Virus record (IMG/VR): IMGVR_UViG_2703718789_000023
Source of the DNA: a virus
Lineage: Duplodnaviria > Heunggongvirae > Uroviricota > Caudoviricetes
Length of the DNA: 4,747 nucleotides
Direction: 5' to 3' (one strand)
The notes beneath the pieces were generated by a model. It was not told where the DNA came from. It made no database searches and saw nothing but the letters and a program-made list of their open reading frames with translations. Positions 672-716 of the stretch are shown here, piece after piece. Position 1 is the stretch's first letter, and every line of letters starts with the position of its first letter. Position numbers and translations under genes: made by a program.

Positions 672-716
672 TGGCGCGCCCTGCAGGATTCGAACCTGCG
701 GCCCACGACTTAGAAG
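672..716 (-). pseudogene. pauD: 3'-terminal 45-nt fragment of tRNA-Arg(UCU) (argU); attR-type partial tRNA duplicate marking a prophage boundary (equivalent to K-12 pauD)
   Basis: Reverse complement of 672-716 is CTTCTAAGTCGTGGGCCGCAGGTTCGAATCCTGCAGGGCGCGCCA, i.e. anticodon loop (UCU) through T-arm (GGTTCGAATCC) and acceptor 3' end with CCA, matching the 3' end of argU as I recall it. Identity stops at nt 717; the 5' half (D-arm, 5' acceptor strand) is absent, so this is not a functional tRNA. Confidence 0.8.

Follow-up and report, generated by a model that had tools for sequence, protein, structure and literature searches.

Tyrosine integrases recombine a phage attP with a tRNA gene, such that a phage-supplied 3′ copy regenerates the gene, while the 3′ fragment it displaces comes to mark the far end of the integrated element. 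The principle is reportedly due to Reiter 1989, Campbell and Williams 2002. Duplication of tRNA 3′ ends by integrating phages is familiar, as is the attR/pauD fragment of the cryptic prophage DLP12. The Islander principle has the same outline, with the tRNA gene regenerated and the displaced 3′ fragment at the distal end. DLP12 has been described as integrated at the argU 3′ end with a 47-bp argU-like attR (PMC6379469), pauD is a listed K-12 pseudo-tRNA gene that serves as a read category in K-12 tRNA-seq analysis, and Hha-induced excision of DLP12 has been reported for K-12.

We analysed a stretch of 4747 nt (hereafter the window) carrying a 45-mer that is also present in K-12 MG1655 at 586057–586101, between ompT and envY, where the annotation 'cryptic prophage DLP12' ends at 586056. 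Positions 26–2096 of the window were 98.1 % identical to K-12, with homology ending at the ompT stop codon. We interpret window positions 670–716 as the attR core (P-O-B′), at which a defective lambdoid prophage of the DLP12 family, integrated in the E. coli argU gene, has its right junction, and assign this reading a probability of about 0.97; none of the results spoke against it. The published 47-bp attR agrees with the 47 nt measured in the window. The DLP12 attR/pauD fragment is already described and the window is another allele of the same site.

The argU fragment and its surroundings

Alignment showed that window 672–716 (minus strand, TGGCGCGCCCTGCAGGATTCGAACCTGCGGCCCACGACTTAGAAG) corresponds without mismatch to the reverse complement of the 3′-terminal 45 nt of intact tRNA-Arg(tct). 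The intact gene used for comparison was argU, tRNA-Arg(UCU), of NZ_CP027548.1 (locus L002, 1407–1483, minus strand). Identity breaks off at window 717 (T in the window, G in argU). The 45-nt identity to the argU 3′ end on the minus strand, with its abrupt end at 717, had been claimed in the first-pass annotation and is borne out by this perfect alignment; 45 nt is correct for the argU identity, but the att repeat itself is 47 nt, since the block common to the window and the attL copy comprises the 45 nt and a further 2 nt beyond CCA. There is a single occurrence of the 45-mer in the window, and none of 200 dinucleotide-preserving shuffles matched it with up to 3 mismatches, so neither the 45-nt identity nor the 47-nt repeat is attributable to chance.

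ARAGORN predicted no tRNA in the window, and an Rfam scan of the window at E≤1 gave no tRNA match. The window copy is thus a fragment and not a gene, which dismisses the possibility raised at first pass that an intact full-length tRNA gene might stand at this site. Relative to the ARAGORN cloverleaf of intact argU, the fragment contains the anticodon loop (CTTCTAA) from its first base onwards and ends at CCA. It lacks the 5′ 32 nt, which make up the D arm together with the 5′ strands of the acceptor and anticodon stems. Extending from the first anticodon-loop base to 2 nt past CCA, it fits the anticodon-loop sublocation class of tRNA integration (Williams 2002), an assignment made because the identity block begins at the anticodon loop.

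The attR junction, taken as window 520–900, was found in 1616 of 5426 complete E. coli genomes. Two hits among the E. coli genomes, H85 and H86, aligned at ~92 % identity with the core and P arm only (window ~656–897); the envY flank was missing and no feature was annotated. Matches of this type may stem from tandem elements or from argU-type att junctions that have diverged or moved.

It is very unlikely that the fragment is more than a passive scar, co-opted as a functional RNA (a tRNA-half-like sRNA) or as a regulatory element of ompT or envY. Its conservation in the 1616 genomes and the use of pauD as a tRNA-seq read category would be in keeping with a function, but any att core that matches an essential tRNA exactly should be conserved, ~46 % of genomes are without the fragment, the 5′ half required for tRNA folding is missing, and no promoter or RNA-family signal was detected.

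The features of the window are collected in Table 1.

Table 1. Coordinates of features in the 4747-nt window
Feature	Position	Strand	Basis and remarks
IS3 right terminus, inserted in envY	1..26	+	No alignment to envY of related strains; context, outside attR
envY 3′ part (AraC-family regulator), chromosomal B′ side	27..626	+	PGAP in identical genome; Pfam HTH_AraC, HTH_18
B′ arm, chromosomal spacer from envY stop codon to att core	627..669	.	Same in empty site (L005); differs from attL and attP left arms
attR core (O)	670..716	-	47-nt direct repeat of attL copy; 672–716 is the displaced argU 3′ 45 nt; pauD equivalent
P arm of attR and ompT upstream region, phage-derived	717..1138	.	Matches 2G7b attP right arm; GC 33.6 %
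ompT, omptin outer-membrane protease, prophage cargo	1139..2092	+	Pfam Omptin E=2.8e-130; annotated in genome and in phage 2G7b near int-attP
Alpha/beta hydrolase, prophage cargo	2279..3763	+	Pfam Abhydrolase_1, Abhydrolase_4; present in phage 2G7b
Internal deletion junction of prophage	3948..4056	-	Last ~57 nt of tail-fibre-assembly gene fused to truncated Rz spanin gene
Endolysin gene, rrrD-type lysozyme	4169..4666	-	Pfam Phage_lysozyme E=1.7e-45; PGAP rrrD

The start of the window carries an insertion sequence end. A megablast gap at window 1–22 was considered as an edge effect and ruled out by alignment, which showed real non-homology of window 1–25 to envY of related strains; window 1–26 is the right-hand terminal inverted repeat of IS3 and ends in GGATCA. 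The IS-end 30-mer is multi-copy in 4233 of the 5426 genomes and lies just 3′ of an annotated 'IS3-like element IS3 family transposase'. The IS3 terminus means that envY is disrupted in the source strain. The exact IS3–envY junction was absent from all complete RefSeq E. coli genomes searched, and an approximate search of the comparison loci found no IS end.

The hydrolase comprises 494 aa, with an Abhydrolase_1 domain, a TAP-like C-terminal domain and a signal-peptide-like N-terminus. Just after its stop codon, window 3765–3837 forms a long AT-rich hairpin with a perfect stem (GCTCCCAATGCA...TGCATTGGGAGC), most likely a bidirectional terminator-like hairpin. The sole Rfam hits in the window fall here, as sub-threshold matches to 'mir-450' on both strands, and were dismissed as chance or as due to a hairpin of this type.

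The att junctions and the origin of the flanking DNA

Several complete E. coli chromosomes, among them that of strain 2014C-3061 (NZ_CP027548.1), matched window positions 23–4747 at 100 % identity. The attL end was read in the 2014C-3061 chromosome, which is the closest identical genome for window 23–4747 and not the source genome. Its annotated gene order is ybcH, envY, the argU fragment, ompT, alpha/beta hydrolase, a truncated 'lysis protein', rrrD and holin, continuing through the lambdoid early genes with Q, nin genes, P/O, cII, cro, cI, N, gam/bet/exo, intD, tRNA-Arg and fimZ. The two 47-nt repeats are 24.4 kb apart, on the same strand and in direct orientation. The pattern described for attachment sites in tRNA genes (Islander/Williams) was found here, in that the 3′ fragment directly repeats the 3′ end of an intact copy on the same replicon. 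Within the element, the tyrosine integrase gene intD ends 15 nt from the regenerated argU (IntD: Pfam Phage_integrase, E=5e-47).

Between attL and attR (locus L001), gene content and order are lambdoid, as in the DLP12 family, and comprise int, exo/bet/gam, N, cI/cro/cII, O/P, nin genes, Q, holin, rrrD and Rz, collinear with phage 2G7b. In 2G7b an OmpC/NmpC-like porin gene (L006, 43220–44362) lies between Q and the holin gene, as does nmpC in K-12 DLP12; the corresponding slot of the 2014C-3061 prophage (L001, 25297–28408) is occupied instead by a carbohydrate esterase of the SASA family together with an insertion of the IS3 family.

A single-base comparison of four junctions gave B′-O-P for the window (attR), P′-O-B for the argU/intD end (attL), P′-O-P for phage 2G7b (L004, attP) and B′-O-B for strain WCHEC020031 (L005, empty attB). 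The left arm of the window (agggcaaagcgg...gaagaagaaa) is the left arm of intact argU in the prophage-free WCHEC020031, whose gene order is envY-argU-fimZ, and its right arm (ttcctagaacgacatttt...) is the right arm of the 2G7b core, one SNP excepted. Reciprocally, the left arm of the intD-side argU (ggaattatggagg...attgtaa) is that of phage 2G7b, and its right arm, the remainder of argU, is that of the empty site.

Both predicted recombination partners were recovered as contiguous sequences. A synthetic attB, composed of window 200–716 and L002 1452–2000, was contiguous in 2500 of the 5426 complete E. coli genomes, with best hits at 100 % coverage and 99.8 % identity; in these related genomes the flanks are joined across one intact tRNA gene. 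A synthetic attP, composed of the int 3′ end, O and window 717–1300, was contiguous at 98.3–99.4 % in four phages, 2G7b (two records), ev243 (two records), Turner and Kati, so that attP with both arms across the core is present in phage genome records. Several other phage records (PhiR series) begin or end exactly at the core.

These results bear out the testable parts of what had been proposed at first pass. The intact argU expected at the other prophage end lies beside intD, 24.4 kb away in NZ_CP027548.1; the clean empty site expected of prophage-free strains is the envY-argU-fimZ arrangement of the 2500 genomes; and the proposal that the partial argU copy is the attR of a tRNA-integrating prophage is upheld, as the four junctions fit an arm swap around a common core to the exact base.

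The complete 47-kb genome of phage 2G7b (NC_049954.1) is lambda-like and extends from terminase via the tail fibres to the lysis genes; in it, int-attP-ompT-alpha/beta hydrolase-tfa takes the place of the lambda b region. Window 670–4003 matched it at 99.6 % over 3334 nt, beginning exactly at 670, the left edge of the core, and window 4056–4743 matched its Rz/lysozyme region at 92 %. Since ompT, the hydrolase and the lysis genes are matched within the 2G7b genome, all of them are phage DNA and prophage-borne. The suggestion that the DNA right of the fragment belongs to the prophage is accordingly sustained, ompT and the hydrolase standing directly after int-attP in phage genomes. On the other side, envY adjoins argU in empty-site strains and is therefore chromosomal and outside the element; the regulator had also been offered as a separate acquisition, and nothing in these data indicates this.

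About as improbable as a co-opted RNA is a second explanation of the border, in which ompT and the hydrolase would belong to an argU-targeting island of their own, inserted in tandem next to the prophage, with the fragment marking the end of the island. The cargo is variable (hydrolase here, appY in K-12) and AT-rich relative to the lysis genes, and tandem arrays at tRNA genes are known from Islander statistics. Against this, ompT/hydrolase and the phage genes are not separated by a third argU fragment, the 45-mer occurring once in the window and once in L001, and 2G7b carries ompT and the hydrolase between attP and the tail-fibre genes of a single 47-kb lambda-like genome.

Least probable of all is a decayed argU duplicate that lost its 5′ 32 nt with no tie to phage integration: such a deletion would also leave a truncated tRNA copy without promoter or 5′ half, but it predicts neither a break exactly at the edge common to phage attP, nor DNA beyond the break that is 99.6 % identical to the phage DNA adjoining attP, nor a single intact argU at the same position beside envY in empty-site strains, and the four-way att comparison refutes it.

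Proposed integration and present state of the prophage

The phage attP carries a copy of the argU 3′ 45 nt and 2 nt beyond, and under the attR reading a tyrosine integrase (IntD type, P22/SfII-like) would have recombined it with chromosomal argU. Recombination would have rebuilt an intact argU beside int (attL) and displaced the original tRNA 3′ end to the far end of the prophage, where it would persist as a non-functional fragment between chromosomal envY and phage-borne ompT. By analogy with other tRNA-integrating tyrosine integrases, strand exchange probably occurs inside window 710–716, the 7 nt of the anticodon loop that form the phage-proximal edge of the repeat. Putative core sites from the anticodon stem would flank this segment, ACGAC at 705–709 and an imperfect partner, TTCCT, at 717–721. 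The P arm (717 to ~845) is predicted to carry arm-type Int, IHF and Xis sites, and attR together with attL would be the substrate for excision.

A motif scan located GTCCC(A/T) at window 772 and 837, with further copies at L002 1212, 1341 and 1352 on the attL side. These motifs may be candidate arm-type integrase sites. They recur as GTCCC(A) in both arms and, with the P-arm block at window ~760–841, are plausible binding regions for arm-type Int, IHF and Xis. A repeat search in attP gave only short two-copy families, mostly uninterpretable, the GTCCC(A) recurrence and the block conserved with phage SfII being the features of note.

The prophage is unable to make particles. At its internal deletion, homology to 2G7b jumps from 24831 (window 4003) to 45716 (window 4056), and ~26 kb are missing relative to 2G7b, including cos, terminase, head and tail genes and bor. 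PGAP annotates the 'lysis protein' as incomplete, without its C-terminus. Among the matches listed, only seven genomes align with the window over its full length without a break; in many more the match ends at 4003 and a tail fiber assembly gene follows. The att cores are identical, and the int region agrees with the one in phage 2G7b at 99.3 %; excision may be possible because the cores are intact and the int region is so close to that of the phage.

Identification of attR adds no new biology. Its value is an exact, base-level right border of the prophage, separating phage cargo (ompT, hydrolase and lysis genes) from chromosomal envY. The border is useful for annotation because the fragment goes unmarked by PGAP in the genomes concerned, and it helps in reasoning on the mobility of ompT, a virulence-associated protease.

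Relation to Nesevirus phages, P22-like modules and DLP12

Phages 2G7b and ev243 (Nesevirus, lambda-like) share the order int-attP-ompT-hydrolase-tfa and are 99.4–99.6 % identical to the reconstructed attP and window 670–4003. They differ in being complete 45–47 kb genomes with cos, head and tail genes, whereas the window prophage has lost ~26 kb, and the lysis genes of the latter are only 92 % identical to those of 2G7b. A literature search on ev243, 2G7b and Nesevirus returned nothing relevant.

A more distant likeness is seen in the Shigella phages SfI, SfII, SfIV and SfV and in a P22-like Salmonella phage, whose int-attP modules, with a tyrosine integrase, are ~74–80 % identical in nucleotide sequence. 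With the SfII attP, the P-arm block at window ~760–841 shows only 2 mismatches over ~82 nt, though the cores differ; int is ~74 % identical to SfII int, as against this near-identical block. The SfII core is likewise a tRNA 3′ segment, derived from thrW and ending at the 5′ edge of the anticodon loop, and the attP feature entered by the SfII depositors ('similar to P22 attP') is centred on the equivalent anticodon-loop edge, which lends indirect support to the predicted strand exchange within the loop. The P22/SfII/SfV-type modules differ in that their core is the thrW 3′ half, and so has another chromosomal target, whereas the window core is argU; the cargo at their attP consists of gtr O-antigen modification genes, where the window has ompT.

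It is conceivable, though rather improbable, that the remnant could still excise as a 24-kb circle, in which case ompT and the secreted hydrolase would be conditionally lost or mobilisable, and that the P arm could mark a cross-integrase retargeting module. This possibility is raised because of the identical 47-bp cores, the SfII-like P arm and an integration module that a complete phage carries at 99.3 % identity. If true, a near-invariant P arm beside swapped tRNA cores would represent a module shared across integrases of different tRNA specificity.

The closest described counterpart of the junction is the attR/pauD of K-12 DLP12, which has the identical 45-nt fragment, the same position between envY and ompT, the same B′ and P arm flanks and an attL formed by intD and argU. 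The first-pass annotation had mentioned an argU pseudogene, pauD, at the right end of DLP12, and this is correct, as the 45-mer directly follows the annotated DLP12 end and pauD is a listed pseudo-tRNA. The link to DLP12 holds for a relative at the same site, but not for the same element, as cargo and deletion endpoints differ. In particular, the window has an alpha/beta hydrolase beside ompT where K-12 has appY, its tfa remnant is fused to a truncated Rz where K-12 keeps nohD, tfaD and others, and envY in the window source carries an IS3 insertion. The same cargo and the same deletion structure as in K-12 were thus not found, and the comparison indicates that the window prophage is a relative of DLP12 at the same site and a distinct remnant.
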